IMG/VR virus record: IMGVR_UViG_2737471840_000002
Location: 1 to 12,082 of that record
Length of the DNA: 12,082 nucleotides
Direction: 5' to 3' (one strand)
From: a virus
Taxonomy: Duplodnaviria; Heunggongvirae; Uroviricota; Caudoviricetes
The notes under the pieces were generated by a model, which searched no databases, had not been told where the DNA came from, and saw only the letters and a list, made by a program, of their open reading frames with translations. Every line of letters starts with the position of its first letter. The stretch's first letter is position 1. Shown one piece after another: positions 1-12,082 of the stretch. The position numbers were made by a program, and so were the translations under genes.

Positions 1-61
1 ATTGAGTGGGAATGATTAACAGCTAACTCATAGCAACTCATTCCTATTCAGATACTAATTT

Positions 62-94
62 AACCCTCTGTTTTTACAGAGGGTTTTTGTTTTT
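62..94 (+). terminator. Rho-independent terminator (10-bp stem 62-71/76-85, loop TTTT, then T-rich tract)
   Basis: Seen in sequence: aaccctctgt-tttt-acagagggtt followed by tttgttttt. Probably terminates an upstream + strand gene outside the window (possibly the integration target gene). Confidence 0.7.
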
Positions 95-140
95 ATGTAT
101 TCATTTCTATTCACTCTACACCATATTTTTCGGCGGTACA

Positions 141-180
141 GGTGACGGTATTACCTTAAAGGTATACTCTCATACCGTCA
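141..180 (+). promoter_or_regulatory. Integrase upstream control region: operator-like site TTACCTTAAAGGTAT (151-165), -10-like TATACT (163-168), nested inverted repeats TGACGGTA (144-151)/TACCGTCA (173-180) and GGTAT-N6-ATACC (161-176)
   Basis: Direct inspection; the palindromes are exact. The operator-like site matches the TTACC-N5-GGTAA motif found elsewhere in the window at 9 of 10 positions. Confidence 0.45.
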
Positions 181-207
181 TGAAAATGGTTTCTATACGG
201 GTGAATT

Positions 208-1464
208 GTGCTTACCGATACAAAATTAAAAAACCTCAAGCCGCAGGACAAACTGTACAAGGTCTCCGATCGTGACGGGCTGTATGTAGCTGTGCTTACG
301 TCAGGCACGGTCTCGTTTCGCTACGACTACCGTATCAACGGTCGCCGCGAAACGCTGGTAATCGGGCAGTATGGGCGTGACGGTATCAGCCTGGCAGAAG
401 CGCGAGAAGAACTGATTGCTGCAAAGAAGCTGCTTAAAGCAGGCCAGTCACCGGCTGCGGCTAAACGTGACGGTATCAAAAAGATTCGTGGTGCCGAGAC
501 GTTTGCGGTACATACCGACAGTTATATGAAACACGTCATCCTGGCTGACAGTACCCGCGCAATGAAACAGGCGGTGATCGACCGTGACATACTTCCGGTT
601 CTTGGCAATAAAATGATGGCTGAAATTACCACATCGATGGTTCGTGATTTGTGTGACCGGATTGTCGAACGCGGTGGCCGGGCAACAGCAGTGCAGGCCA
701 GGGAGATCATCAGCAGCGTATACCGTCATGCCAATGACCGTGGTCATGGTTTGTTTAATCCTGCGGCTGACATTAAACCTTCGTCTATCGCCATATTTAA
801 ACCACGAGAGCGAACACTGACACCAGAAGAAATTGGCCTGTTCTTCCGCACGCTGGATGCCATTGGTGCTATGGGCACTATGAAAATGGCTTTAAAGCTG
901 GTGCTTATCACTATGGTTCGTAAAGGCGAATTCACCAATGCAACGTGGGATGAAATAGATTTTAAAAAATGGACATGGACAATTCCTTCAGACCGCATGA
1001 AGGGAAGCCGGGCGCACGTTATTTACCTGCCTAAACAGGCACAGGATATATTGGTTGGGTTGCAGATGTGCGCTGGTGGAAGTGAATATCTGGTTCCTGG
1101 TCGTTACAATTTCCGGAAGCCATTATCTAATGCCGCGCTGAACTCTCTGATCGACAGAACGGTGAAAATAATAAATGAAGATGGTGAGCATATTCAGGAC
1201 TTCACCGTACACGATATGCGCCGTACAGCAAGTACGTTGTTGCATGAGGCTGGTTATCCTTCAGACTGGATTGAAAAGGCTCTGGCACATGAGCAGAAAG
1301 GTGTGCGCGCCGTATATAACAAAGCGGAATACGCCAGACAGCGCGCCTACATGTTGCAGCAGTGGGCCGATATGATTGATTCCTGGATTGACGGGGAGCA
1401 TACGGATCTGATTCCGTTCTCCCCGTCGAAGTTTGAGAAGTGGATGGAAGACAGTAATAAATAA
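208..1464 (+). CDS. int: Tyrosine-type site-specific integrase, P4-like (N-terminal DUF4102-type arm-binding domain)
   Basis: GTG start at 208. N-terminus LTDTKLKNLKP...DGLYVAV is typical of P4-family integrases; C-terminal catalytic region has HDMRRTASTLL (R, H) and LAHEQKGVRAVYNKAEY (catalytic Tyr context). 418 aa. Confidence 0.9.
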   Translation: MLTDTKLKNLKPQDKLYKVSDRDGLYVAVLTSGTVSFRYDYRINGRRETLVIGQYGRDGISLAEAREELIAAKKLLKAGQSPAAAKRDGIKKIRGAETFAVHTDSYMKHVILADSTRAMKQAVIDRDILPVLGNKMMAEITTSMVRDLCDRIVERGGRATAVQAREIISSVYRHANDRGHGLFNPAADIKPSSIAIFKPRERTLTPEEIGLFFRTLDAIGAMGTMKMALKLVLITMVRKGEFTNATWDEIDFKKWTWTIPSDRMKGSRAHVIYLPKQAQDILVGLQMCAGGSEYLVPGRYNFRKPLSNAALNSLIDRTVKIINEDGEHIQDFTVHDMRRTASTLLHEAGYPSDWIEKALAHEQKGVRAVYNKAEYARQRAYMLQQWADMIDSWIDGEHTDLIPFSPSKFEKWMEDSNK

Positions 1465-1466
1465 TT

Positions 1467-2126
1467 CTATCCTTCCTGGACTTTGGTAAGCGTCAGATTT
1501 CCGCAGAACACTGCGCCGGTGTCGATGTACATCTGGTTTGCATACACCAGTGGGTGATGTGCTGGCGTATGACCGAAGATGAACAAATCGGCACCGGTTA
1601 TCTCCGAGACAATACCGTCCTGCGCGTCGCTAACCCGTTCACGATTCCATATCACCATTTCTTCTGGTACTGGCTTATCGAATGCGTATTCGTTGTGCGG
1701 GTAGTCTGCGTGACAGATGACGACCTTCTTATTGCCGGTAACCAGTTCGATAATCATCGGGAGGTTGGTAATCTTTGGCAGAAGGTATTTGAGTTGCACA
1801 TCCTGCTCAGAATCAAGTTGGTGCCACCATCCACCGCCGTTTGACATCCAATGTCCGAAACTTCCGCCGTTGACCAGTGCATCCAGCATCATCTGCTCAT
1901 GGTTGCCACGAACAGCTCGGAACCACGGCATAGTAATCAAATCCAGGCATTCGACGTTTTCAGCGCCGCGGTCAACAAGGTCACCAACGGAAATAAGTAA
2001 ATCGCGCGCCGGGTCGAATGAAACTTTGTCGAGTTCGTTCATCAGCAGCGTGTAGCACCCATGCAGATCGCCGACGACGAAGATATTGCACCAGTCAGCG
2101 CCATTGATGCGTTGATATAGGTTCAT
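1467..2126 (-). CDS. Lambda-type Ser/Thr protein phosphatase (PPP-family metallophosphoesterase; PrpA/PrpB/NinI-like)
   Basis: Motifs GDLHG, GDLVDRG, GNHE in canonical order; strong recalled similarity to E. coli PrpA. Start assigned to internal ATG ([12 protein letters not shown]...) at 2126, forming an ATGA overlap with the upstream gene stop; the track ORF extends to 2246 but that would overlap the methylase gene. Confidence 0.88.
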
Positions 2127-2773
2127 GCTGCACGCTCCCGCCCCTGGTTGTCTATTGGTGACACCGGAGCATTGCTGAATGCATTTGTTAATCCGCCAAT
2201 ATCCAACGCGTATCCAGGGTGTAGTTGCACTGCCGGGTCTTCGCACTGATTACCCCAAACATCGAAGCCATGAGACGACTGGCGGGCGAACAGTTCAATG
2301 CGAGAAACATCGCCTAACAATTGCACAAGTTTTTCACGAACGACATCTGGTTTTCTTGAATGCTCAAGCCGCGGTGCGGTAAATGACTGAACGATCCCTG
2401 CATTAATGCGCGGAGGTAGTTTTCCCTTTACTGCAAACAGGCAATCTTCACTATTGGCGCGAGTCATGTGTCCCATACCCATAACCAGTTTATCTGGTTG
2501 TCGACTACCACATTTTATCCACGTGAAGCCCTTCATCGTCATCAGACGGAATCCCCAGGCTTCAACAACTTTTAGTGCTTCGAGTGGTTGTGTTGGCACC
2601 CACCACATGGCCAACAGACAGTTTTCATCGGCCAAATCCCACACAGGAAGGCGGCAGATATCCAGCACACTCATAACCGGATATTTAAAACCGGCACCGC
2701 GATTACCATCTGCGGCTTTGTCCCGGTATACCCAGGGTGGATCTGCATAGATTAGTGTGTATTTCTTAGTCAT
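2123..2773 (-). CDS. MT-A70 family DNA N6-adenine methyltransferase (orphan, no cognate restriction gene visible)
   Basis: N-terminal motif LIYADPPW (DPPW catalytic motif) right after start MTKKY; ATG at 2773 preceded by GGGGTGG SD-like sequence; track ORF starts 12 nt further upstream at GTG 2785. Confidence 0.8.
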
Positions 2774-3065
2774 AAACCACCCCACAACATCCTATGCCGC
2801 TATAGTCGCCACGGCGAAGGCCGTTACCGTTTGTGATACATTGGTCCCTGCGAACCGCGATCCTTGCACGCTCAACATCACCAGAAGCAACATCCATACA
2901 CTGAAGCCAAAGGTGGGCGGCAATGCGGAACTGCCCTTTTTTCTCTCTTTCAATCGCGCGTTTTTCGATCTCTATCGCCGCAGGAGTAACGGCAACAACC
3001 TTTGAAGGGCTGCGCATTGAAACCTTGTTCATGTGATATTTTTCAAGTCGGCTTAACTTTCTCAC
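2766..3065 (-). CDS. Hypothetical protein (99 aa from GTG 3065; alternative ATG starts at 3032 or 3017)
   Basis: ORF in same orientation as flanking operon genes, overlaps methylase start by 8 nt (coupling). No motif recognised. Start uncertain. Confidence 0.5.
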   Translation of the reverse strand: MRKLSRLEKYHMNKVSMRSPSKVVAVTPAAIEIEKRAIEREKKGQFRIAAHLWLQCMDVASGDVERARIAVRRDQCITNGNGLRRGDYSGIGCCGVVYD

Positions 3066-3149
3066 TTAATCCAACCCTCTCTGAAAATTAATGCCAGCAG
3101 ATAAAGCCATGCTGAAACAGAGGCCAGGAATAAGTACCATCCTGACCAT
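3066..3149 (-). CDS. Candidate 27-aa hydrophobic micro-ORF (MVRMVLIPGLCFSMALSAGINFQRGLD)
   Basis: Not in the ORF track (too short). ATG at 3149-3147 preceded by GGAG; stop abuts GTG 3065 of the next ORF; fills most of the 109-nt gap after the AlpA-like gene. Could be chance. Confidence 0.25.
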   Translation of the reverse strand: MVRMVLIPGLCFSMALSAGINFQRGLD

Positions 3150-3174
3150 TTGCTCCAGTGCCTTAGCAGCGCAC

Positions 3175-3423
3175 TCATGCAGCGTTGCTCACAGGACGAT
3201 ATACACGTTGCTGAACAGGAGGCTTTTTACCCTGGAACTCTGCCGGGCTTGCTGCCTGACGTTCATCAAGCCAACGCTCAACTTCATCACGGTTCCATGC
3301 GCAGCGTTTATCGGTGATATACCAGCGTTTAGGAAATTCCCCTGCGCGCTCCATACGGTCGATAGTGCTCCATGACAGTGGCACCACCGCCAGGAGTTCC
3401 TTCTTACCTAATGCACCTTTCAT
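3175..3423 (-). CDS. AlpA-family phage regulatory protein (excisionase-like HTH; Phage_AlpA/MerR-like fold)
   Basis: 82 aa; the segment KKELLAVVPLSWSTIDRMERAGEFPKRWYITDKRCAWNRDEVERWLDE matches the AlpA/Xis-type winged-helix pattern (conserved W after the HTH, EV..W). RBS AGAGAGG 6 nt upstream of ATG 3423. Confidence 0.75.
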   Translation of the reverse strand: MKGALGKKELLAVVPLSWSTIDRMERAGEFPKRWYITDKRCAWNRDEVERWLDERQAASPAEFQGKKPPVQQRVYRPVSNAA

Positions 3424-3444
3424 AAATACCTCTCTTGGTTGCAG

Positions 3445-3465
3445 TGCGGCGCGCGTGGCGCCGCG
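3445..3465 (-). other. GC-only stem-loop (7-bp stem gcggcgc / gcgccgc, 5-nt loop) in the recT-alpA intergenic spacer, no U-tract
   Basis: Seen in sequence between stop of 3473-4354 gene and start of 3175-3423 gene. Confidence 0.5.
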
Positions 3466-3472
3466 GTGGTGG

Positions 3473-4354
3473 TTACATAGATGTTTCGTTTAATTCTTCC
3501 CGACGAACGCTGTAAACGTCGGTGGCTTTTGCCAGCAGTTCGTCATCATCTGAAAGTTTTTGTGCAATGTATTTGTAAGCCTTATCCAGTTCGGAGACAG
3601 TGCTGTAATTCATCGCTGCGCTGGTAAAGGCCATCAGCATTTCTTCTGGATCACGGCTATCCGCTTTACGCGTTTGCTCATCAGGCTTTTTCGCTGGTTT
3701 AGCGTTGATCAGACTGTTCATTCCCGCAGCAGTGGTCGTTTGCGGAGTAATGTCTCGCTCAACGCGCGGTGCCGTTTCCTGTAATTCGTCAGGGGTGTAA
3801 ACACCGAGAAGTACATCAGGAGCGTGCAGGCGAGCCCATCGTTTCGTGCAAAGATAGGCAAGCTGCTGGCGCGGATCCTGTTCCCACAATGGAGAGTTAC
3901 GCACTCCGGCTTGCGCCATACTGATGGTAAGCTCACGGGGTTCTGCTTCTCCTTTAAGAACTGCTGACACAGTTACCGTCAGATTCGGTGATTTATCTGT
4001 TTTGCCGTTAACATTCGACCAGTCACCGCTCCAGCGATAATTCAGGCGTGTCGCTAGCAGGCTGGAAGAGGATACGACCGCGTTTACCAACTGTGCTTCG
4101 TAGCCTAACGTTCCGTTTACCACATGCGTTTTCTGCGCCACGGCGAAAGGATTCATTCCCCACTGTGCCGCCTGCATGGTCACCGCCAGACAATCGGCAG
4201 TTTTGCCTTCAAGATGTTTCGGTACAGTCGCTTTGCTTTGTGACATCAACTCCGCGAAACGCACCAGTTGATTCATGCCCTCCGGGCTGAAGATTGCCGC
4301 AGCAGTACCTACAGTTGCGCCTGGTTGTGATGTGATTGCGATATCATTGCTCAT
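3473..4354 (-). CDS. Putative phage single-strand annealing protein / recombinase (RecT/Bet-like)
   Basis: 293 aa; immediately downstream of and ATGA-coupled to a PD-(D/E)xK exonuclease, the classic exo+SSAP pairing. Family assignment is by context and loose recall, not by a confirmed motif. Confidence 0.55.
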   Translation of the reverse strand: MSNDIAITSQPGATVGTAAAIFSPEGMNQLVRFAELMSQSKATVPKHLEGKTADCLAVTMQAAQWGMNPFAVAQKTHVVNGTLGYEAQLVNAVVSSSSLLATRLNYRWSGDWSNVNGKTDKSPNLTVTVSAVLKGEAEPRELTISMAQAGVRNSPLWEQDPRQQLAYLCTKRWARLHAPDVLLGVYTPDELQETAPRVERDITPQTTTAAGMNSLINAKPAKKPDEQTRKADSRDPEEMLMAFTSAAMNYSTVSELDKAYKYIAQKLSDDDELLAKATDVYSVRREELNETSM

Positions 4355-5172
4355 ACGTACATATCCTGTTTACGTGCCCAGTCAGGGCGTTTAATAATTT
4401 CCACTCCGCCCCACTCATCGTTGATGCGGCATTCGTGATAGGTATTCAGATCCCGGCGGAACAGAGCGTGCCCGGCATCGACATCCGGCGCATCCAGCTC
4501 GAACACGCGTACCGGATACCGACCACAATCAATGCTTTCGCTCACGGCAAGAAAGAAAAAACCATGCGGCTGACCAGTAACCTTCATTGCGCCTTCGCGG
4601 TACATTGCGTCCTGCACGTGGTAGCGGAATTCCTCGATGTGGCGTGCAAAACGGTCCATATCTGCAACCTTTTTCACGTCGACGATCACGTTGTGCTCGT
4701 TCAGCCATTTGTCTGGACGAATGCGGCACAACTCACCAGTATCTTCATCGTTCCAGTACATTGATGCTTCGCAGTAACCAGGTGCTTCCAGCATCCAGCG
4801 TGCCGCCGGGTGAGCCATTGCGCTATCACGCATCAGCTCCAGTTTCCGCCACTGCTCGGCATCAAGTACCGTAATCCCCATATCCGCCACATCACGAAGA
4901 AATGCCTCTTCGTCAGCTTTACCTTGTTTCGTCCGACGATCGAATTTCGGTGAAACAATGAAGCGTTTGTCGAACTCTCCAGGCTCCAGAAGCAGACAGT
5001 GCAATGCAGTTCCCATATCCAGTGCAGACTTTTTCTCTTCGTCTTCTGGTGCTGCCTGAACCCATTTAAGAAGCGCCGGATTCTTGGCAACCATGTCTAG
5101 TTGCGACTTACTCACGCCGTCACCGGCGTGGTAGTCTTCGTTGCTGATGTCGAAATAAATTCCCGGTTTCAT
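4351..5172 (-). CDS. PD-(D/E)xK-superfamily nuclease (phage recombination exonuclease, RecE C-terminal domain/YqaJ-like)
   Basis: 273 aa; acidic/K motif region (…NVIVDVKKVADMD…), located in recombination module; ATGA overlaps on both sides. Confidence 0.6.
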   Translation of the reverse strand: MKPGIYFDISNEDYHAGDGVSKSQLDMVAKNPALLKWVQAAPEDEEKKSALDMGTALHCLLLEPGEFDKRFIVSPKFDRRTKQGKADEEAFLRDVADMGITVLDAEQWRKLELMRDSAMAHPAARWMLEAPGYCEASMYWNDEDTGELCRIRPDKWLNEHNVIVDVKKVADMDRFARHIEEFRYHVQDAMYREGAMKVTGQPHGFFFLAVSESIDCGRYPVRVFELDAPDVDAGHALFRRDLNTYHECRINDEWGGVEIIKRPDWARKQDMYV

Positions 5173-5468
5173 GCCGCGTCCCTCTGTCCATCAAGCTGAT
5201 CCGCCAGATCCCAGCGGGCGATAATTGCCATTGCCTCTCGCCGATAGGCATCCATCAGTTCTTCGAACTCAGGGCTGTCTTTAGCAGCCTCCAGTACTTC
5301 CTGACGAACGCCTTTGACTGTTACAACGTCGAAAGTTGAGGACAGTTGATGAAGTCGGATGCTCTCAATCAGTTCAACTTGTCGGTCATATAGCTGTTCT
5401 GACAGGCGGTAGTCCTTGTCGAATGCCAGCATGATTTTTTGAAGATTTTTCTGCTGATTAACGTTCAT
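5169..5468 (-). CDS. Hypothetical protein (99 aa from ATG 5468; track gives 101 aa from GTG 5474)
   Basis: RBS GAGGTG upstream of ATG 5468; stop overlaps exonuclease start (ATGA). Confidence 0.6.
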   Translation of the reverse strand: MNVNQQKNLQKIMLAFDKDYRLSEQLYDRQVELIESIRLHQLSSTFDVVTVKGVRQEVLEAAKDSPEFEELMDAYRREAMAIIARWDLADQLDGQRDAA

Positions 5469-5475
5469 ACCCACC

Positions 5476-6510
5476 TCAATATTTGATATACGCGTCCTGC
5501 ACTTTGCCGCCAGCGATAGCCAACATTGCTTTCTGCGCGAATTCTTCGGGAATGCCTTGGGCTATCAGATCTGCGATTACTCTGCGGTTAACGGTACGGC
5601 GATGCTCTTTATCTGCAGCTCGGCGCGCTTCTTCGTCGGCGATACGCTTCTGTTCGTCAAGGCGGGCTTTTTCTGCCGCCTCTTGGCGTCGGCGTTCCTC
5701 GGCAACGGCTTCTTCTTTTTCGCGTCGTGCGCGCTGCTCTGCTTCAATTCGCTGACGTTCTGCTACTTCAGCACGTGCTTTTTCTTCCGCCGCCAGGCGT
5801 GCCGCAGCCTCAATTTCAGCTTTCGCTTTTTGTTCAGCTTCGAGCCTGGCCTGTTCAGCAGCTTCCCGGCGGATATTCTCTTCTCGCTCAATGCGCGCTT
5901 TTTCCTCCGCTTCTTTGCGAAGTCGCTCCAGCTCAGCGGCTTCATGCTCGCGTTTTTGAGCTACTGCGAGTGATTCTTCCAGTTTCTGGATGGTTGAATC
6001 CTTGGCTACTCCAGCTTCTGCTGCGTACTCCTGCCAACTTTCATCAAGTGCTACTGATTTAGCCTCTTGAATTCGTTCCTGAATATCAGATGATGGCAAG
6101 TAGTTTCCGGAGAGATCGATCACGTCAGCTAGTGCTCGCAAATTTGTCAGGCGTTGTTGCAGTGCTTCAGTGCGTAATTTCTCAGCATTTTCCCACTCGG
6201 TGAGTGGGCGGCGTACTTCATCACGAAGACGATCGCATTCGGTTACGAAGCGTCGTAACTCTGCTTCAACTACTTTCGGCTGTTCTTTCAGGCGTTTCAG
6301 ATAATCACGTCCTGGTTTTTCTACCGCTGTTTTACTTCTTGAAACCTTCGCAGCCAGAGATGCAATGCGCTTTCTGCCTTTGTCTGTGCTAATGTCAGGC
6401 ACTTCATTAACACCTTCACGGATCTGCTCGAGAAACTTTTCCAGCCCTTTTTCAACGTAAATTCTTGGTGCCATGTCTGGTGTGATTTCGATGATTGACA
6501 ATTCACTCAT
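5476..6510 (-). CDS. Hypothetical phage protein with long E/A/R/K-rich coiled-coil (low-complexity) segment
   Basis: 344 aa; residues about 185-300 are an (E-A-x-x-K/R-A-R)n-like charged helix; globular N- and C-terminal parts. Function not recognised. Confidence 0.7.
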   Translation of the reverse strand: MSELSIIEITPDMAPRIYVEKGLEKFLEQIREGVNEVPDISTDKGRKRIASLAAKVSRSKTAVEKPGRDYLKRLKEQPKVVEAELRRFVTECDRLRDEVRRPLTEWENAEKLRTEALQQRLTNLRALADVIDLSGNYLPSSDIQERIQEAKSVALDESWQEYAAEAGVAKDSTIQKLEESLAVAQKREHEAAELERLRKEAEEKARIEREENIRREAAEQARLEAEQKAKAEIEAAARLAAEEKARAEVAERQRIEAEQRARREKEEAVAEERRRQEAAEKARLDEQKRIADEEARRAADKEHRRTVNRRVIADLIAQGIPEEFAQKAMLAIAGGKVQDAYIKY

Positions 6511-6518
6511 TTGCTAAC

Positions 6519-6668
6519 CTACTCCCATATCTCGTTATCGTTGGCCACATCGCGAGCTTCTTTGCTGACGAAAGCCCACTTAATGCCTTCCTGTAAGGTG
6601 CGGAACTTCCAGCTCATGAATCCGCATGCAGTAACGCAGTACCAACCGTTGATGATTTTCCACTGCAT
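6519..6668 (-). CDS. Candidate small protein, 49 aa (MQWKIINGWYCVTACGFMSWKFRTLQEGIKWAFVSKEARDVANDNEIWE), first gene after pL-like promoter
   Basis: Not in ORF track (<60 aa). ATG 6668-6666 with GAGG 9 nt upstream; stop 8 nt before start of 344-aa gene. Confidence 0.45.
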   Translation of the reverse strand: MQWKIINGWYCVTACGFMSWKFRTLQEGIKWAFVSKEARDVANDNEIWE

Positions 6669-6687
6669 AACTTGTTACCTCGGTCTG

Positions 6688-6702
6688 TTACCGTTGAGGT
6701 AA
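6688..6702. promoter_or_regulatory. Operator-like palindrome TTACC-GTTGA-GGTAA (OL-proximal, overlapping pL -10/+1)
   Basis: Exact 5+5 inverted repeat with 5-bp spacer. Confidence 0.6.
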
Positions 6703-6730
6703 TAATTATGCGTATATGGTTTGATGTCAA
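6700..6730 (-). promoter_or_regulatory. pL-like promoter: -35 TTGACA (plus coords 6725-6730), AT-rich -10 (about 6702-6708)
   Basis: Consensus -35 hexamer on minus strand, 16-17 bp spacer to AATTAT/TAATTA; flanked by two operator palindromes. Confidence 0.5.
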
Positions 6731-6749
6731 TAGATATGAGTTAAAAAAA

Positions 6750-6764
6750 TTACCAGTTAGGTAA
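6750..6764. promoter_or_regulatory. Operator-like palindrome TTACC-AGTTA-GGTAA (OL-distal)
   Basis: Exact 5+5 inverted repeat with 5-bp spacer. Confidence 0.6.
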
Positions 6765-6776
6765 TCGAATAGGCAA

Positions 6777-6800
6777 TAAAAAAGCCGCCATAAGGCGGCT
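6777..6800 (-). terminator. Rho-independent terminator for repressor gene (stem agccgcc/ggcggct, loop, then 6 U on minus strand)
   Basis: Seen in sequence 22 nt downstream of repressor stop. Confidence 0.75.
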
Positions 6801-6821
6801 TACTTACTGAAAAATATGGTT

Positions 6822-7406
6822 TTATTGTTTGTTTTTTTCGTTCTGGTTGATGACAAATTCAATGTAACTTTCGATCTTTGCTTTCTCGGTTTCGGGTAAC
6901 AATGCGTAGCGCGAGCGATCATAGTTGATGGTCGCAGGGTCGTGCGGGTGAATCAGTAATTCATAGCCGTGACGCCCGAATGCGGATGCAACATTCTCCA
7001 GGGTGGAAATGGAAACGCTGACCTCATTGTTTAACAGGCGGCTGATTGTCACCTGGGCGACGCCGGATGCGCGGTGTAGTTTTCCCTGCGTTGAAAGGTC
7101 GCGGCTTTCGCTCATCCAGCGTTCCAGGTTGTGAGCCGCCAGCTGACCAATGTCGCTTGGGCCGACAGGCTGAAAACCTTCCTGAGAAAGCGAGCGATCG
7201 ATATCAAGCCAGTTACGTGGTTTATTGGCGGCAGCTTCAATTTTTCGCGCAACCTGGTCGCCGATAACCTTCTTGCCAAGAGCCCAGCGGTTTACCAGAT
7301 TTGCCTGAGTTCCAAGTTTTTCTGCCATCCGCGTCTGAACACCATTGAATTCACGGTCGATCAAGTCGTTGAGATTTTGCCTGCGGACGTCTTGGATACT
7401 TTTCAT
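6822..7406 (-). CDS. CI-like prophage repressor with two XRE-type helix-turn-helix domains and no LexA-like S24 peptidase domain
   Basis: 194 aa. HTH-1 about residues 20-60 (QTRMAEKLGTQANLVNRWALGKKVI), HTH-2 about residues 110-150 (ASGVAQVTISRLLNNEVSVSISTLENVA). Position and orientation equivalent to lambda cI (divergent from cro-like gene, followed by terminator and pL). No S24 motif visible. Confidence 0.65.
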   Translation of the reverse strand: MKSIQDVRRQNLNDLIDREFNGVQTRMAEKLGTQANLVNRWALGKKVIGDQVARKIEAAANKPRNWLDIDRSLSQEGFQPVGPSDIGQLAAHNLERWMSESRDLSTQGKLHRASGVAQVTISRLLNNEVSVSISTLENVASAFGRHGYELLIHPHDPATINYDRSRYALLPETEKAKIESYIEFVINQNEKNKQ

Positions 7407-7429
7407 TTTCTGGAAAATCGCCTCATATA

Positions 7430-7448
7430 TGAATCAGTAGATGATTCA
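7430..7448. promoter_or_regulatory. Perfect 7-5-7 palindrome TGAATCA-gtaga-TGATTCA, 24-42 bp upstream of repressor start
   Basis: Seen in sequence; distinct from the TTACC/GGTAA motif. Confidence 0.45.
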
Positions 7449-7461
7449 ATTTAAAGCAATA

Positions 7462-7524
7462 TTACCCAACAGGTAAATGCACCCCATAGGTAACTATCCT
7501 TGATTTTTGTTACCTTATGGGTGA
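7462..7524. promoter_or_regulatory. OR-like tripartite operator: TTACC-CAACA-GGTAA (7462-7476), gcACC-CCATA-GGTAA (7479-7493), TTACC-TTATG-GGTgA (7510-7524)
   Basis: Three copies or near-copies of the same palindrome between the divergent repressor and Cro-like genes. Confidence 0.65.
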
Positions 7525-7535
7525 ATATTTATTAT
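7507..7535 (+). promoter_or_regulatory. pR-like promoter: -35 TTGTTA (7507-7512), 17-bp spacer, -10 TATTAT (7530-7535)
   Basis: Hexamer match and spacing; overlapped by operator 7510-7524. Confidence 0.45.
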
Positions 7536-7560
7536 CTGAAATAAATATCAGGCAATAGCT

Positions 7561-7791
7561 ATGAGCGATAACGAACATTTCGATTTCAAAAAGCACTGGC
7601 TTGCACTTACTCCGGATGAGCGTGAAGCCTTCGCACAGGAAGCCGGAACGACGAGTCACTATATCCAGACTCACTTAACAGGTAAGCGCAAAATGCCAGG
7701 TAAAGTATTGATGAATGGGCTTTTTAAAGCCTGTAAAACAAGACAATGGCTGCGCTCAAAAGCAGAACTGGCATACTTCTTCTACTCATGA
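7561..7791 (+). CDS. Cro-like small HTH regulator (putative)
   Basis: 76 aa, divergent from repressor across operator region; segment EREAFAQEAGTTSHYIQTHLTGKRK resembles Cro/YdaS-type HTH. Weak RBS. Confidence 0.5.
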   Translation: MSDNEHFDFKKHWLALTPDEREAFAQEAGTTSHYIQTHLTGKRKMPGKVLMNGLFKACKTRQWLRSKAELAYFFYS

Positions 7792-7813
7792 TATCCAGCT
7801 ACAACCCTCTGTA

Positions 7814-7838
7814 GACCGCCACCCGGCGGTCTTTTCAT
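7814..7838 (+). terminator. Rho-independent terminator (stem gaccgcc/ggcggtc, loop accc, then TTTT) downstream of Cro-like gene
   Basis: Seen in sequence. Confidence 0.65.
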
Positions 7839-7846
7839 ATCTATTC

Positions 7847-7861
7847 GTACCTCAAAGGTAA
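7847..7861. promoter_or_regulatory. Operator-like palindrome GTACC-TCAAA-GGTAA (9 of 10 match)
   Basis: Immediately after terminator, upstream of candidate -35 TTGATC (7879-7884). Confidence 0.45.
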
Positions 7862-7941
7862 TAAAAAACCAAATATGGTTGATCTTTTTTTTGTGTCAGC
7901 ACAAAATGACCGTAATCCCAATACTAATAGCAGGGCTTACC

Positions 7942-8142
7942 ATGGAAATCATTACACGTATTGATGCCGCAAAGCGCGGACTTAAACGCTACTACACCGG
8001 AAAAACATGTAAGCACGGACATGACAGTGAACGCTGGGTTTACAACGGACACTGTGTTGAGTGCACCATGGAATCAAACCGTCGTATCAGGGCAGAGATT
8101 AAGCAGATCATGATTAATTCCTCCCCACAACATTCAAGCTGA
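7942..8142 (+). CDS. Small Cys/His-rich putative zinc-ribbon protein (66 aa from ATG 7942; possible longer form from ATG 7906 with hydrophobic N-terminus)
   Basis: CKHGH...HCVEC arrangement; occupies the cII-like position between cro-like gene and replication genes. Start uncertain. Confidence 0.5.
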   Translation: MEIITRIDAAKRGLKRYYTGKTCKHGHDSERWVYNGHCVECTMESNRRIRAEIKQIMINSSPQHSS

Positions 8143-8157
8143 TAGCGGAGATTAATC

Positions 8158-8973
8158 ATGAGCAGACATGCAACAGATTGGGCCTGGGAGACAGATCCAG
8201 GTAGCTCGTCATTAAAGCTCATACTGCTCTCGATGGCTGACAGAGCCGATGAATATAACCTCTGCTACCCCAGCATAGAACGCCTCGTTAAAGACACTTG
8301 CCTGAACAAAAAAACCGTGCAGGCCGGGCTTATATCGCTCATGAAAATGGGGCTTATTTCAGATACCGGAGAGAGAAAGGGAGCGACGAAAAGAGTGCGG
8401 GTTTTCTCTCTTAATATAACCAAAAACGGGAACATTAAAGGCAACCGGGAAGGGGGTAATGAACCCGAAAACGGTAATGTTACCGAAAACGGGAATATAC
8501 CCAAAAACGGGATGTTGAATGATCCCAAAAACGGGATGTTGAATGATCCCAAAAACGGGATCCAGAACCAGTCATATAACCAGTCATTTAACCAAGAGAG
8601 GGAGAGCAGGACAAAAAACGGGGATTCTGTGCATCATGACCCCGGCGCAAACAACGCCGTGATGAATAACTTTGTTCCTCCTGGTGGGCCAGGGCAATTA
8701 GGCAAATTTGTCATGCATGAACAATGGCAGCCATCAGATGACTTTCTTCGGAAAAGCTCATTGCAGGGGATCTACCTGGACAGTCTGCCAACGGCACAGG
8801 AACTTGCAGAGTTCAGAATTTACTGGATGGCTGAGGGTAAGGCATACCATCAGGCACAGTGGGAGCAGAAGCTGGCAAGGCGGCTGCAGATTAGCAGACA
8901 GAAGCAATCAACATTACCTGATAACAACGTTCCGCACTGGAACAGCCCTGAAGCATGGGAGGATTTCTTGTGA
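8158..8973 (+). CDS. Replication initiator / replisome organizer (lambda O-like: N-terminal HTH DNA-binding domain, iteron-encoded linker, C-terminal DnaT-like domain)
   Basis: 271 aa; N-terminus LKLILLSMADRADEYNLCYPSIERLVKDT is HTH-like (replication-initiator type); the central NG(N/M)-rich repeats are encoded by the iterons; directly followed by and GTGA-coupled to a P-like gene. Confidence 0.75.
   Translation: MSRHATDWAWETDPGSSSLKLILLSMADRADEYNLCYPSIERLVKDTCLNKKTVQAGLISLMKMGLISDTGERKGATKRVRVFSLNITKNGNIKGNREGGNEPENGNVTENGNIPKNGMLNDPKNGMLNDPKNGIQNQSYNQSFNQERESRTKNGDSVHHDPGANNAVMNNFVPPGGPGQLGKFVMHEQWQPSDDFLRKSSLQGIYLDSLPTAQELAEFRIYWMAEGKAYHQAQWEQKLARRLQISRQKQSTLPDNNVPHWNSPEAWEDFL
8419..8624. 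repeat. Origin-like iteron array: at least 6 copies of (A/T)CC(C/G)AAAACGG(G/T)A at 8419, 8464, 8482, 8499, 8523, 8547 (spacing 18-24 bp) plus a degenerate copy near 8611
   Basis: Direct repeats counted in sequence; last three copies are exact 24-bp tandem repeats (cccaaaaacgggatgttgaatgat). Embedded in the initiator gene as in lambda ori. Confidence 0.8.
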
Positions 8974-9755
8974 ACAACGTTTTTACCGCGATACAAAACC
9001 GTGACGGAGAAGCCCTTTCTCGCATGTCAGGTTATGAGCATCAGTACACCAACAATGACAACGTGGTGAACATGTCAGCAGAGAGGCTTGTTGATGCCCT
9101 TTTCAAACAGCTGAAACAACTGTTTCCGGCGGCAGTGGTAACCAACCTGAAGACGCCAGAGCAGGAAGTTGCTGCAAAACAGCAGTGGATTGCTGCGTTT
9201 GCCGAAGGGGGGATCCGAACCCGTGAACAGGTTTCTGCTGGTATGCGCCACGCCCGCGCCAGTGAGTCTCCGTTCTGGCCGTCGCCAGGGCAATTCATCA
9301 AGTGGTGTAAAGACAGCAAGATGGTTCTTGGCGTCACCATTGACGATGTGATGGCGGAGTTTCACCGGTACAGCAAGGAAAAAAGTTTATATCCTGGTGG
9401 TCCCGAAAGATTCCCGTGGCGGCATCCGGTTATGTACTGGGTCGTATGTGATACCCGCCGTGCAATGTATCAGCGCCAGCTTAGCGAGATTGAGGTTGAG
9501 AAACACGCGCGCAGGCTGCTCGATGATTGGGCGAAAAAGGTGGCTTCCGGACAGCGGATACCCGATCCGGTGATCAGCATACAGGCAAAGTCAGAGCCCA
9601 TGAGTACACCTCCGGACACAGGGAGAGACGTTTACCATCCACCAGGGCGAAGTTTCGGGTGCATGCCTAACGCCGCCACCCTTGGGGGAATAACACCGGC
9701 GCAGTGGCTGATGGAGGAATACAGGCGGGGAAAGGCGGCAGGATTTATCAAGTAA
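8970..9755 (+). CDS. Replication protein P-like helicase loader (lambda P family)
   Basis: Recalled similarity to lambda P: GMRHARASESPFWPSPGQFIKWC vs lambda GMRVARRQNRPFLPSPGQFVAWC; GTG start at 8970 with GGGAGGA SD 6 nt upstream, overlapping O-like stop (GTGA). Track ORF begins at ATG 8955. Confidence 0.85.
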   Translation: MNNVFTAIQNRDGEALSRMSGYEHQYTNNDNVVNMSAERLVDALFKQLKQLFPAAVVTNLKTPEQEVAAKQQWIAAFAEGGIRTREQVSAGMRHARASESPFWPSPGQFIKWCKDSKMVLGVTIDDVMAEFHRYSKEKSLYPGGPERFPWRHPVMYWVVCDTRRAMYQRQLSEIEVEKHARRLLDDWAKKVASGQRIPDPVISIQAKSEPMSTPPDTGRDVYHPPGRSFGCMPNAATLGGITPAQWLMEEYRRGKAAGFIK

Positions 9756-9792
9756 TACCAGCGCGATAGCGCATTTTTTTACGCCTTAACAA

Positions 9793-9807
9793 TTACCTAT
9801 TGGGTAA
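9793..9807. promoter_or_regulatory. Operator-like palindrome TTACC-TATTG-GGTAA
   Basis: Exact match to motif, upstream of promoter-like hexamers. Confidence 0.55.
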
Positions 9808-9826
9808 TAAAATATTCTAAATTCTA

Positions 9827-9855
9827 TTGATTTCGTGTCTTATGTGGTTTTTAAT
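9827..9855 (+). promoter_or_regulatory. Promoter-like: -35 TTGATT (9827-9832), 17-bp spacer, -10 TTTAAT (9850-9855)
   Basis: Hexamers and spacing; sandwiched between two operator-like palindromes in the same way as the pL-like promoter. Confidence 0.45.
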
Positions 9856-9869
9856 TACCTCAGAGGTAA
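9855..9869. promoter_or_regulatory. Operator-like palindrome TTACC-TCAGA-GGTAA overlapping the RBS of the downstream gene
   Basis: Exact match; GAGG of the site doubles as SD for ATG 9873. Confidence 0.55.
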
Positions 9870-9872
9870 ATC

Positions 9873-10217
9873 ATGAGAAAACAGATACAGGCTCTTGGTC
9901 GACTCAAAACAGGTCAGATGAACAAAACAGAATCTGCGTATTGCCAGCACCTTGAGCTGCGTAAACGTGCAGGAGAAATCGTCTGGTATCGATTTGAGGG
10001 TATCAAGCTGCGGTTAGCTGACAACACGTTCTATACGCCCGATTTTGCTGTGATGCTCGCCACCGGCGAGATGGAACTGCACGAAGTGAAAGGTTTCTGG
10101 ACCGACGACGCCAGGGTGAAAACCAAAGTCGCCGCAGATCAGTATCCGTTCCGAATCATCGGGGTAACGGTTAAACCAAAGAAAGCAGGTGGTGGCTGGA
10201 ACATCGAAGAGTTCTGA
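9873..10217 (+). CDS. DUF1064-like phage protein (114 aa)
   Basis: Recalled family resemblance (MRKQIQALGRLK...YRFEGIKLRLADNTFYTPDF...HEVKGFWTDDARVK). Not verified by search. Confidence 0.55.
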   Translation: MRKQIQALGRLKTGQMNKTESAYCQHLELRKRAGEIVWYRFEGIKLRLADNTFYTPDFAVMLATGEMELHEVKGFWTDDARVKTKVAADQYPFRIIGVTVKPKKAGGGWNIEEF

Positions 10218-10278
10218 ATCGACGATCTTTTTAGTTATCAATGTAATCAATAAGTTATGTGGATAAGCGAGGGTAAAG

Positions 10279-10827
10279 ATGGAAAGTAATATCAAAGGGT
10301 TAGTTGCCGCCGGGCATGAGATGGCTTCGGAACTGAAAGCAGAATGTGGTGCCGTTGATATGCGCAGTGTGGCAAAGCTGATCAGCGATTTGGCAACGCA
10401 ACTGGAAGTGCAACTGGTGCGTGCTAATGCGCTGGCAGCGGAGAATGCGGGGCTGAAACATGCAATGGCTGTAACTCTTGAGCATGTGTCGGTCACGGAT
10501 GCAGGGCAGGCTGGTGTTGCTGCAATGATTATCAACGATGCCCTGCACCACAGCGAAACTCCCGCCACCGATGCTTTCCTTGCTGAAATTCGTGCGGAAG
10601 CACGCAACGAGGGGATTAACTATACCGCCAGCCGTCTTGCTGCTGCGTTCAATCACGGATTTATCAATAAGTCTTTACGTGAAGTTTTCGACGTTACACG
10701 CATGATTCTGTCAGCGAAAGAAGAGTTAGCTAATGAACCGCACCCGATTGATGGCCTGTCCAGTGAATATGCGGAGAAATCCCTAGAAGAATGGGCGGAG
10801 CAGCTTCGCAAAGGAGGCAACCAGTGA
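10279..10827 (+). CDS. Hypothetical phage protein (182 aa), possibly Ea22-like
   Basis: ATG with GAGGG RBS; stop overlaps the next gene start (GTGA). No motif recognised with confidence. Confidence 0.55.
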   Translation: MESNIKGLVAAGHEMASELKAECGAVDMRSVAKLISDLATQLEVQLVRANALAAENAGLKHAMAVTLEHVSVTDAGQAGVAAMIINDALHHSETPATDAFLAEIRAEARNEGINYTASRLAAAFNHGFINKSLREVFDVTRMILSAKEELANEPHPIDGLSSEYAEKSLEEWAEQLRKGGNQ

Positions 10828-11576
10828 GCGAAATTAATTACCAGGCACTGCGTGAGGCGGCGGAACGTGCAATTCCAGCAATGGAACGCCTGTTAATGTT
10901 GCCAGCTGATGATGATTTGTTAAGTGAACAGGAACTTAAAGATTACGGTGTGGATATTGATGCGCTCAACGCCTTCAAATTTCTGGCCGGACCAGAAACC
11001 GTGCTGGCACTACTGGATGAACGGGAAAGGAACCAGCAATACATCAAATCCCGCGATCAGGAGAACGAGGATATTGCGCTAACGGTAGGGAAGCTGAGAG
11101 TTGAGCTTGAGGAAGTAAAACAACACGCTGAAGAATTATCCGAAACCAAGGCTGTTCGTAACCAATGGCGGCCAGATATTTGCCCAATAACCGGACGTGC
11201 ATTTTTCATGTGGATTGAGCATCCAACATTGGGAAATGTGCCGACATATGGTGGCCCATTAGATAGTTACACCATTCCAACAAAGGACGGTGACGGTGAG
11301 TTTTCATGTGAGCGTTACGATCATGATTTTGGCGGTTGGGTAGAAAGCGAATGTCTTGGGTTATATCTGATTGATGATAGAGAACAATGCAGGGTCTACG
11401 AACTGGAGGAACGCGTTAAGGAACTGGATGCTCGGGAAATATCGCTCCCGGAACGTAGCAGCATGCTTCATCGAACAGATTTTCACGATGATTACCAAAC
11501 GGTAATGGCATACAAAGTTTCTGAAGTCATCGCTGCAATCCGCGCCGCAGGCATTCGCATCAAAGGAGGTGAGTAA
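10824..11576 (+). CDS. Ead/Ea22-like family protein (250 aa from GTG 10824)
   Basis: N-terminus SEINYQALREAAERA resembles the conserved start of Ea22-like proteins (recall); AAGGAGG SD 6 nt before GTG. Track ORF begins at 10791 but has no SD. Confidence 0.55.
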   Translation: MSEINYQALREAAERAIPAMERLLMLPADDDLLSEQELKDYGVDIDALNAFKFLAGPETVLALLDERERNQQYIKSRDQENEDIALTVGKLRVELEEVKQHAEELSETKAVRNQWRPDICPITGRAFFMWIEHPTLGNVPTYGGPLDSYTIPTKDGDGEFSCERYDHDFGGWVESECLGLYLIDDREQCRVYELEERVKELDAREISLPERSSMLHRTDFHDDYQTVMAYKVSEVIAAIRAAGIRIKGGE

Positions 11577-11752
11577 TGCGTGTGGCATGTATCGGCTTGT
11601 TACCGTACCCGACTCGTTTTTGGGCTTCTGCGCTAATTGCAAAGCCGTATGTCCTGATGGCTGACAACATCATCCCGGCACCAAAGCGCCGCCATACCGG
11701 TATTGCAGCGGCACGACGAGCAGCAAAGAGACGCAGGAGAGCAAAGCGATGA
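11576..11752 (+). CDS. Small basic protein, 58 aa (C-terminus AARRAAKRRRRAKR)
   Basis: Not in ORF track. ATG 11576 overlaps preceding stop (TAATG) with AGGAGGTGA SD; stop overlaps next start (ATGA). Confidence 0.4.
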   Translation: MRVACIGLLPYPTRFWASALIAKPYVLMADNIIPAPKRRHTGIAAARRAAKRRRRAKR

Positions 11753-11925
11753 AAAACCGTAAGGCAAAACGACTTTTTTTACAGCGACCTGTGCGTGTGG
11801 TGGAGCTGGTTATTAGCAACCATAAGATAGCGGTACTCCATCCATTTGGTCAGGTGGCTTTTGCCGCAAAGCGTAAGCCTACTGCGTCACAGAACAGGCG
11901 GAAGAAAGGGTACGCTGTAAGATGA
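11749..11925 (+). CDS. Small basic protein, 58 aa (MKNRKAKRLFLQRP...), paralog of next ORF
   Basis: Not in ORF track. ATGA overlaps on both ends; shares N-terminus MKNRKAK with the following ORF. Confidence 0.4.
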   Translation: MKNRKAKRLFLQRPVRVVELVISNHKIAVLHPFGQVAFAAKRKPTASQNRRKKGYAVR

Positions 11926-12082
11926 AAAACCGTAAAGCAAAGATTCTGTTAGTTCGTAGAAACGCTCCTGGCGTCTGGCAGTGGGTGAGACTCAGCAACC
12001 GACGGATGGGGTTGATGAAATATTACGGGATGATGGATTGTGGTTTTTGCAAAAAGCCCAGCGCGGCGCAAAACCGCTGGAA
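11922..12082 (+). CDS. Small basic protein, partial (at least 53 aa; MKNRKAKILLVRR...), runs off the window end
   Basis: Not in ORF track. Same N-terminal heptapeptide as the preceding ORF; no stop before the window ends. Confidence 0.4.
   Translation, partial: MKNRKAKILLVRRNAPGVWQWVRLSNRRMGLMKYYGMMDCGFCKKPSAAQNRW

Follow-up and report, generated by a model that had tools for sequence, protein, structure and literature searches.

A small gene under purifying selection heads the repressor-controlled leftward operon of epsilon15-like prophages

The window analysed here is a stretch of 12,082 nucleotides (nt) of a caudoviricete (IMG/VR record IMGVR_UViG_2737471840_000002, positions 1–12,082), and our subject is a 49-codon open reading frame (ORF) at positions 6519–6668 of its minus strand, called the small gene below, whose product is MQWKIINGWYCVTACGFMSWKFRTLQEGIKWAFVSKEARDVANDNEIWE. 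Judged by the pattern of substitution among related loci, we show that this ORF truly encodes a protein and that the purifying selection on it is strong. We also show that the gene is universal in the epsilon15-like phage group, in which it always lies ahead of an exonuclease/RecT module. Databases already list its product as a hypothetical protein, and the gene is thus an ordinary known orphan and no new element; what is new here is the evidence of selection, the conserved regulatory context, the fold prediction, and the exclusion of homology to Kil, CIII, Arf, and N.

The evidence for coding comes from 170 true related loci, gathered from viral contigs, species-representative genomes, and assemblies, with 147 distinct sequences used to calculate the ratio of nonsynonymous to synonymous differences (pN/pS). 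This ratio is 0.31 for the whole ORF, 0.06 for codons 1–25, and 0.63 for codons 26–49, and lies between 0.47 and 1.46 in the other five frames. The pS of the small gene is 0.44, and invariant residues are specified by several synonymous codons (three each for V12 and T13; four each for A14, T24, and L25). This synonymous variation at invariant residues indicates that what is constrained is the protein rather than an element in DNA or RNA. A preliminary description of the window, made from its letters alone, had allowed that the ORF might prove not to be conserved in related prophages, with stops tolerated; it is intact in about 167 of the 170 loci (~98 per cent), and the remaining three carry ATA in place of the ATG start codon. 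Those three loci are Klebsiella-type viral contigs with the change at locus position 3001, in two of which an extra nucleotide is also inserted close to the 3′ end, and they are possible natural knock-downs of the gene.

The alternative that the ORF is non-functional (a chance ORF, a cis-acting DNA or RNA element, a leader peptide, or a small membrane protein or lipoprotein) is already largely refuted, and we find it scarcely credible. ORFs of this size are common by chance: there are 150 of at least 30 amino acids (aa) in the window, so the size of the small gene alone is not significant, and it is conservation across related loci that raises it above chance. The alternative also sits poorly with the strong selection on amino acids, the free synonymous variation, and the lack of any match in Rfam. 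An RNA element or an antisense ORF at 6511–6702 of the plus strand was likewise rejected, given no Rfam match and pN/pS values above 1 in those frames. Although a VTAC motif fits the lipobox pattern, 15 of the 30 family members lack the Cys of the lipobox, which argues against a lipoprotein. The preliminary description was right that the protein has a central hydrophobic stretch, but the stretch does not have the hydropathy of a membrane helix: its best 19-residue Kyte–Doolittle mean is 0.57, and the maxima across the family (0.13–1.45) are all below the transmembrane range. A transmembrane helix was therefore rejected, even though the first structural model was helical; some homologs have D or E inside the stretch, and a deeper alignment yielded a β-β-β-α model.

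The small gene had been placed exactly by the preliminary description, in the leftward direction, with a good ribosome-binding site, and between a pL-like promoter and a 344-aa gene. All of this holds: the ORF is on the minus strand and starts with ATG, a GAGGT Shine–Dalgarno sequence stands 8 nt upstream of the ATG, a promoter of the form TTGACA-17-AATTAT lies 33 nt upstream, and the 344-aa gene starts 8 nt after the stop codon. Relatives in other genera have GAGG-type Shine–Dalgarno sites at similar spacing. The description had counted two Cys residues, which is correct, and four Trp residues, of which there are five (W3, W9, W20, W31, and W48). It had also called the ORF unannotated, which is true of the ORF list that its author used but not of public records. 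The same protein is known as phiV10 gp39 (phiV10p39, YP_512294.1, 50 aa, ‘similar to epsilon15p37’), epsilon15 gp37 (NP_848245.1), phiv142-3 Orf44 (53 aa), and RefSeq WP_001198618.1 (49 aa). Its residues 1–49 match positions 1–49 of the 50 positions of the PHROG 898 profile (E = 5.2e-38), and a tblastn search, one of the checks suggested for it, gave identities of 100 per cent to phiV10 and 79 per cent to epsilon15.

The exact 49-aa sequence is present on 694 contigs of the protein collection, each time as ‘hypothetical protein’, and a literature search for the small protein found nothing. Among complete Escherichia coli genomes, 558 of 5426 (~10 per cent) match the prophage stretch. For a few E. 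coli genomes among the top matches, only the coiled-coil gene and the repressor are listed under the match, and it appears that the Prokaryotic Genome Annotation Pipeline (PGAP) omits the small gene in them.

Homology searches (two rounds and an exhaustive hidden Markov model [HMM] search of 1.8 billion representative proteins) revealed a family of only ~60 clusters, none of them with an informative protein name; those named by organism are all from Enterobacterales. The position of the gene is retained at 40–45 per cent identity in Serratia, in Hafnia, and on a metagenomic contig. In the divergent relatives the order is repressor, promoter region, small gene, an optional gene of 326–348 aa, a gene of 94–101 aa, exonuclease, and RecT; one of them lacks the 94–101-aa gene, and there the small gene directly precedes a 550-aa exonuclease gene. 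We tested the conserved position at the phiV10, phiv142-3, E. coli AR_0085, Serratia, Hafnia, and epsilon15 loci, and found it at each. The stop codon of the small gene often overlaps the next start codon, as ATGA or GTGA, and the gap to the next cistron is 0–8 nt. In the protein, M1, G8, T13, and W31 are invariant, and W3, G16, S19, F22, A32, F33, and A38 are nearly so. Three candidate members or names were discarded: a 1929-aa ‘homolog’ is a tandem-repeat artefact, a match in a Pseudohongiellaceae genome is a chance word match, and the name ‘DUF2985’ on one Serratia member derives from a weak and probably spurious match (E = 0.031).

The regulatory context of the gene is also conserved. The promoter upstream of it is the top sigma-70 match in the entire window, and it is bracketed by two operators of the form TTACC-N5-GGTAA, a palindrome that occurs eight times in the window with at most one mismatch, compared to 0.23 occurrences expected by chance. 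Equivalent palindromes are annotated as repressor-binding in the RefSeq record of epsilon15. The same layout (operator, 19 nt, TTGAC(A/T), 17 nt, (A/G)AT(T/C)AT, with the −10 hexamer overlapping the second operator) is kept in relatives from Hafnia, Serratia, Klebsiella, Citrobacter, Scandinavium, Pseudocitrobacter, and Erwinia. Behind the promoter-distal operator lies the terminator of the repressor gene, which insulates the small gene from the repressor transcription of the lysogen; the phiV10 record annotates a terminator after the repressor gene, and most relatives that we compared have a GC-rich hairpin and a T-run there. The repressor is a homolog of SPC32H Rep (PDB 5D50). Because the promoter is bracketed by operators and separated from the repressor gene by a terminator, we expect no expression of the small gene in the lysogen; on derepression its product should be the first to be made leftward, and it should be one of the first products after derepression or infection. 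The claim of the preliminary description that this is the first gene of the leftward early operon is thereby well supported: it is the first cistron behind a repressor-controlled pL-type promoter, in a position conserved across genera.

Transcription would start near position 6695, which gives a leader of ~27 nt, and the transcript probably begins inside the operator. The leader varies among relatives: it is ~60–160 nt longer in Klebsiella, Citrobacter, Scandinavium, Serratia, and other relatives, and likewise longer in epsilon15, judged by the annotated repressor sites. Most of the longer leaders contain a hairpin, and nearly all have a third operator ~30 nt before the ATG. At one Serratia locus a 70-aa gene is inserted in the leader (4713–4925 of that locus), and the leader looks like a hotspot for moron-type insertion. 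In some database entries the protein is extended N-terminally through the operator, with the palindrome TTACCAAATTGGTAA translated as ‘YQIGN’; these entries are start-codon mis-annotations.

The fold of the small protein was predicted with AlphaFold2. From an alignment of 30 diverse homologs, the model has strands at residues 2–6, 9–14, and 18–22 and a helix at 25–48 (predicted local distance difference test [pLDDT] 74.7; predicted template modelling score [pTM] 0.44), whereas 15 close homologs gave an unreliable model of two helices (pLDDT 54). The β-β-β-α model agrees with the conserved NG and xxG turns. The product is predicted to be soluble, with a three-stranded β sheet packed on one C-terminal helix; the sheet part (residues 1–25) would be near-invariant and rich in aromatic residues, and the helix tail variable. 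A Foldseek search against PDB returned nothing, and in a fold search of BFVD the best match (E = 0.25) was not significant; the matches were uncharacterised phage proteins, AP2-like parts of HNH endonucleases and integrases, and DUF2188. The top fold matches (AP2, integrase N-terminal domains, HNH-associated domains, and DUF2188) are generic as well as non-significant. Across the family the isoelectric point (pI) ranges from 4.5 to 10.6 and the net charge varies between −4.5 and +3.5, with no conservation of basic residues. The Cys residues are not conserved either, numbering from 0 to 3 per member, and the idea that the two Cys of the window protein form a disulfide or bind a metal was rejected.

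Given this fold and the regulatory context, the small protein would be made immediately on derepression, as its promoter and terminator architecture implies, and might bind another macromolecule stoichiometrically through its conserved aromatic sheet. The partner would most likely be a conserved host protein, and the small protein would then be an immediate-early factor that aids takeover of the host or counters it. It is less likely to be an enzyme, to sit in a membrane, or to bind nucleic acids. The choice of a host protein as the partner follows from the exclusion of membrane, enzymatic, nucleic-acid, and repressor-directed roles and from an analogy with small early phage proteins. We consider a host-directed role plausible. 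Taken generically, with a Kil-type inhibitor included, the reading of the small protein as a host-directed binder draws on that analogy and comes close to an even chance without reaching it. The narrower proposal is that the gp37/gp39 family constitutes an uncharacterised class of immediate-early host-takeover factors common to all epsilon15-like phages, whose aromatic sheet binds and inhibits a protein conserved in Enterobacterales, such as a component of division or defence, a protease, or a nuclease. We put this forward tentatively, and would sooner expect it to fail than to hold.

A different partner would be found within the phage itself. The small protein could be a phage-directed regulator, either a small antirepressor with positive feedback or a mini DNA-binding protein, similar to AP2 or integrase-arm domains, that acts on phage promoters. 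Such a role would fit the first gene under direct repressor control, particularly one that co-occurs strictly with the repressor family (both are in the same 36 phage records of the phage collection), and it would accommodate the non-significant resemblances of the model to AP2, integrase N-terminal, HNH-associated, and DUF2188 domains. There is also a precedent, since small-protein antirepressor modules adjoining repressor genes are known (PMC10432266). However, variants of the small protein do not co-segregate with the repressor: repressor identity and small-protein identity are not correlated (Spearman rho −0.2), and epsilon15 and a Citrobacter werkmanii prophage have repressors that are 99 per cent identical and small proteins that are only 69 per cent identical, with different C-terminal tails (..VANDNGIWG in epsilon15 and ..KTEMDMGVSK in C. 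werkmanii). An antirepressor of the Qtip or smORF type, which would be expected to co-vary with the repressor, is for this reason unlikely, and related phages are reported to have a separate antirepressor (ZX5 ORF4, phiV10 ORF23, and phiv142-3 ORF8; PMC9782041). As for DNA binding, the wide range of net charge and the unconserved basic residues are unlike a DNA-binding sheet, and the protein has no sequence-profile match to AP2, Arm-DNA-bind, or DUF2188. Overall, we regard a phage-directed regulator as unlikely.

The discrepancy between near-identical repressors and diverged small proteins with different tails implies that recombination took place between the two genes, with its breakpoint in the conserved operator/promoter region. 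If the small protein is a host-directed binder, the two types of helix tail, whose recombination is not tied to the repressor, could be the mark of an arms race.

The prophage to which the gene belongs is epsilon15-like (Uetakevirus) and of podophage type: the window region shares 98 per cent identity with Escherichia phage phiv142-3 and with phages of the phiV10 type, which belong to the genus Uetakevirus. The preliminary description had reasoned from lambdoid phages, and this assignment had to be revised, although the layout of the immunity region is lambda-like in spite of the non-lambdoid phage. Leftward, the order is repressor, terminator, promoter, 49-aa gene, 344-aa gene, 101-aa gene, PD-(D/E)XK exonuclease, and RecT, followed by an AlpA/Xis-like gene, a PerC-like gene, an MT-A70 methylase, a NinI-like phosphatase, and finally the integrase gene on the opposite strand. 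No strong terminator was found on the minus strand between 6668 and 1467. Coordinates of the features that bear on the small gene are listed in Table 1.

Table 1. Positions, in the window, of the small gene, its expression signals, and the adjacent genes of the leftward operon and immunity region.
Feature	Position	Strand	Description
49-aa gene (small gene)	6519..6668	−	ATG start, 49 codons; ORF and translation; ortholog of phiV10 gp39 / epsilon15 gp37
Shine–Dalgarno sequence GAGGT	6677..6681	−	8 nt ahead of ATG; read from sequence
Promoter-proximal operator TTACC-N5-GGTAA	6688..6702		overlaps −10 hexamer
pL-type sigma-70 promoter	6702..6730	−	TTGACA 6730–6725, 17-nt spacer, AATTAT 6707–6702; 10/12 matches
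Promoter-distal operator palindrome	6750..6764		19 nt upstream of −35 hexamer
Intrinsic terminator of repressor gene	6782..6801	−	8-bp stem, 6 GC pairs, T-run
Prophage repressor, 194 aa, two helix-turn-helix (HTH) domains	6822..7406	−	Pfam HTH_3; PDB 5d50_A, E = 4e-42
Second cistron, 344-aa coiled-coil protein, PHROG 1376	5476..6510	−	optional gene
Conserved downstream module	3473..5474	−	101-aa protein (PHROG 856), PD-(D/E)XK exonuclease, RecT

The 344-aa gene is an optional insert at the precise boundary of the small gene and the gp38-like gene. Relatives of the phiV10 type lack it, with gp38 directly following the small gene, and the junction of the small gene and the 344-aa gene occurs in only 40 of 561 matching E. 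coli records. The RefSeq name of the 344-aa protein is coiled-coil, it has a weak TolA-like low-complexity match, and its gene contains three diverged 56-nt internal repeats (5657–5943). For the downstream gene of ~100 aa, an identity as GamL was considered and rejected: one Hafnia homolog has a precomputed match to PF28165, which a local Pfam search did not reproduce. Pairwise BLAST of the ~100-aa protein against lambda Gam gave a 33-aa match only (E = 0.002), which we leave as a hint. At the far end of the leftward operon, beside the integrase gene, is the NinI-like Ser/Thr phosphatase gene (1467–2246, minus strand), and a terminator-like hairpin at 62–85, in the stretch 1–207, stands ahead of the integrase gene. 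Related prophages are integrated at the 3′ end of guaA.

Several other features of the window involve the same operators. A second operator pair (9793–9807 and 9855–9869) has a 62-bp spacing equal to that of the pL pair; within 9786–9869 of the plus strand these operators bracket the promoter-like sequences TTAACA-16-TAAAAT and TTGATT-17-TTTAAT, just upstream of a DUF1064/resolvase-like gene (9873–10217), and the proximal operator overlaps the Shine–Dalgarno sequence of that gene. The region looks like a further repressor-controlled early promoter. On the rightward side, a strong terminator after the cro-like gene (7813–7832), conserved across genera, is followed by an operator with one mismatch (7847–7861). 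Here, within 7813–7908 of the plus strand, lies a block conserved across genera, GGTAATAAAAA..A..TA.GGTTGATCT, which contains TTGATC-16/17-CAAAAT and is partly paralogous to the pL core (76 per cent between 6697–6721 and 7856–7880). The block may serve the replication genes as a rightward promoter of their own, or else act leftward as an activator-dependent pRE-like promoter. Further along, a DnaT-like replication gene (8158–8973) contains a repeat of 18–24 nt (..CCCAAAAACGGGA..) in seven distinct copies (8412–8564; copies at 8412, 8457, 8475, 8493, 8517, and 8541, and one more overlapping set). By analogy with lambda O, these repeats look like origin iterons within the initiator gene.

The finding is solid but ordinary, and its value is in a well-defined small target for experiment. 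The small gene is found not only in E. coli but also in many Salmonella, Klebsiella, Citrobacter, and Serratia genomes. The host of phiV10 is E. coli O157:H7, and phages of the phiV10 type have been used for O157 typing and reporter assays. If the target is indeed a conserved host protein, the small protein would represent a new inhibitor of compact size and offer a way into the early biology of phages of the epsilon15/phiV10 type.

Judged by its sequence, the small protein shares no homology with Kil, CIII, Arf, or N. Searches of Pfam, NCBIfam, PADLOC, and PDB gave no sequence match (in Pfam, none even at E ≤ 10), and in a control with 1000 shuffled sequences, the HMM score of the real sequence was equalled or exceeded by 224 shuffles for lambda Kil, 501 for P22 Kil, 237 for Arf, and 132 for CIII.

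The preliminary description had suggested a Kil-type division inhibitor, and in this case the support is positional only. FtsZ-ring assembly is blocked by lambda Kil, P22 Kil, DicB, and T7 gp0.4, and a Kil-type small protein would do the same early after induction. The 49-aa gene resembles the kil genes in that it encodes a small protein of an early-left operon, just upstream of recombination genes (lambda kil is directly before gam-bet-exo, and P22 kil before arf-erf), and in that it would be repressed in the lysogen, as expected of a toxic product. It differs in having no detectable sequence relationship to either protein: lambda Kil (PF06301) and P22 Kil (DUF5444, PF17519) are unmatched, with hhalign probabilities of 0.4 and 0.3 per cent, respectively. 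This profile comparison, of the type that the preliminary description had proposed, thus revealed no known relatives, and the HMM scores are indistinguishable from those of shuffled sequences. As a control, P22 Kil itself matches DUF5444 at 1.9e-46, and the window protein does not. A shared pattern seen by eye for P22 Kil (‘xxxxNGxxxV ... A..WA’) was discarded, as it has no statistical support. Division inhibitors are, moreover, just one of many classes of small early proteins, and we judge this specific reading to be very unlikely.

The FtsH inhibitor CIII of lambda (C3 of P22) is alike in size (54 aa) and in its place in the corresponding operon, and its N-terminus MQYAIAGW is superficially similar to MQWKIINGW of the window protein. 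However, the CIII core ESLLxRITRKLR (ESLLxRITRKLRxGWKR in an alignment of five CIII sequences) is absent from the small-protein family, and CIII was rejected as a relative, with hhalign probabilities of 0.3 per cent for profile versus profile and 0.4 per cent for the single sequence, and with an HMM score no better than that of shuffles. A CII-type partner was not found either: Pfam gave nothing significant for the 66-aa protein encoded at the cII position (only YneP at E = 0.096, below the cutoff), which is therefore not assigned to the CII family. This protein (7942–8142, plus strand; PHROG 1081) is rich in Cys and His (..GKTCKHGH..NGHCVECT..), a composition that suggests a zinc ribbon and not a CII-type helix-turn-helix.

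P22 Arf (PF17585) is a parallel in genome organization, as its 47 aa are encoded by a tiny gene directly before the recombination genes of the pL operon, and it offers a precedent for the small protein as a recombination accessory factor. In that role, the protein would be an Arf analogue or a nuclease inhibitor of the Gam/Abc type that aids the exonuclease and RecT or protects phage DNA ends. The small gene always heads the exonuclease/RecT block, immediately so in the relative with the 550-aa exonuclease gene, and the overlap or abutment of its stop codon with the next start codon suggests coupled expression. Yet Arf is acidic and unrelated in sequence, and the immediately downstream gene varies (344-aa, gp38-like, or exonuclease), so adjacency does not define a fixed partner. 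We think a recombination accessory factor quite unlikely.

Lambda N shares with the small gene the position of first gene transcribed from a repressor-controlled pL, and the strong, conserved terminator after the cro-like gene would also suit an N-like transcription antiterminator. In contrast to N, the window protein is half as long, is predicted to be folded rather than disordered, has no arginine-rich motif (there is no arginine at all in its first 22 residues), and comes with no nut-like site, and the pI of its family is not uniformly basic. A leader of only ~27 nt, with the transcript probably starting inside the operator, leaves no room for a nutL site; the leftward operon lacks a strong terminator, Rfam gave nothing, and the conserved operator and block behind the cro terminator may provide the replication genes with a promoter of their own. 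An antiterminator of this kind is extremely improbable.

Among domains of other proteins, the AP2, integrase N-terminal arm-binding, and DUF2188 mini-domains have a topology like that predicted for the small protein, a three-stranded antiparallel sheet with a C-terminal helix. The window protein belongs to one family with phiV10 gp39, epsilon15 gp37, phiv142-3 Orf44, and WP_001198618.1, to which it is 79–100 per cent identical, and the order of repressor, terminator, operators with promoter, small gene, and recombination module is common to all of them. Only the last codons differ: the window form stops at TAG after 49 residues, compared with 53 aa for phiv142-3 and 50 aa for the phiV10 type. 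From the ends of the proteins and their coordinates, we infer that phiv142-3 has GAG where the window has TAG and ends at a TGA overlapping the next ATG, and that this difference shortens the window form by four codons, so that it ends 8 nt before the next ATG.

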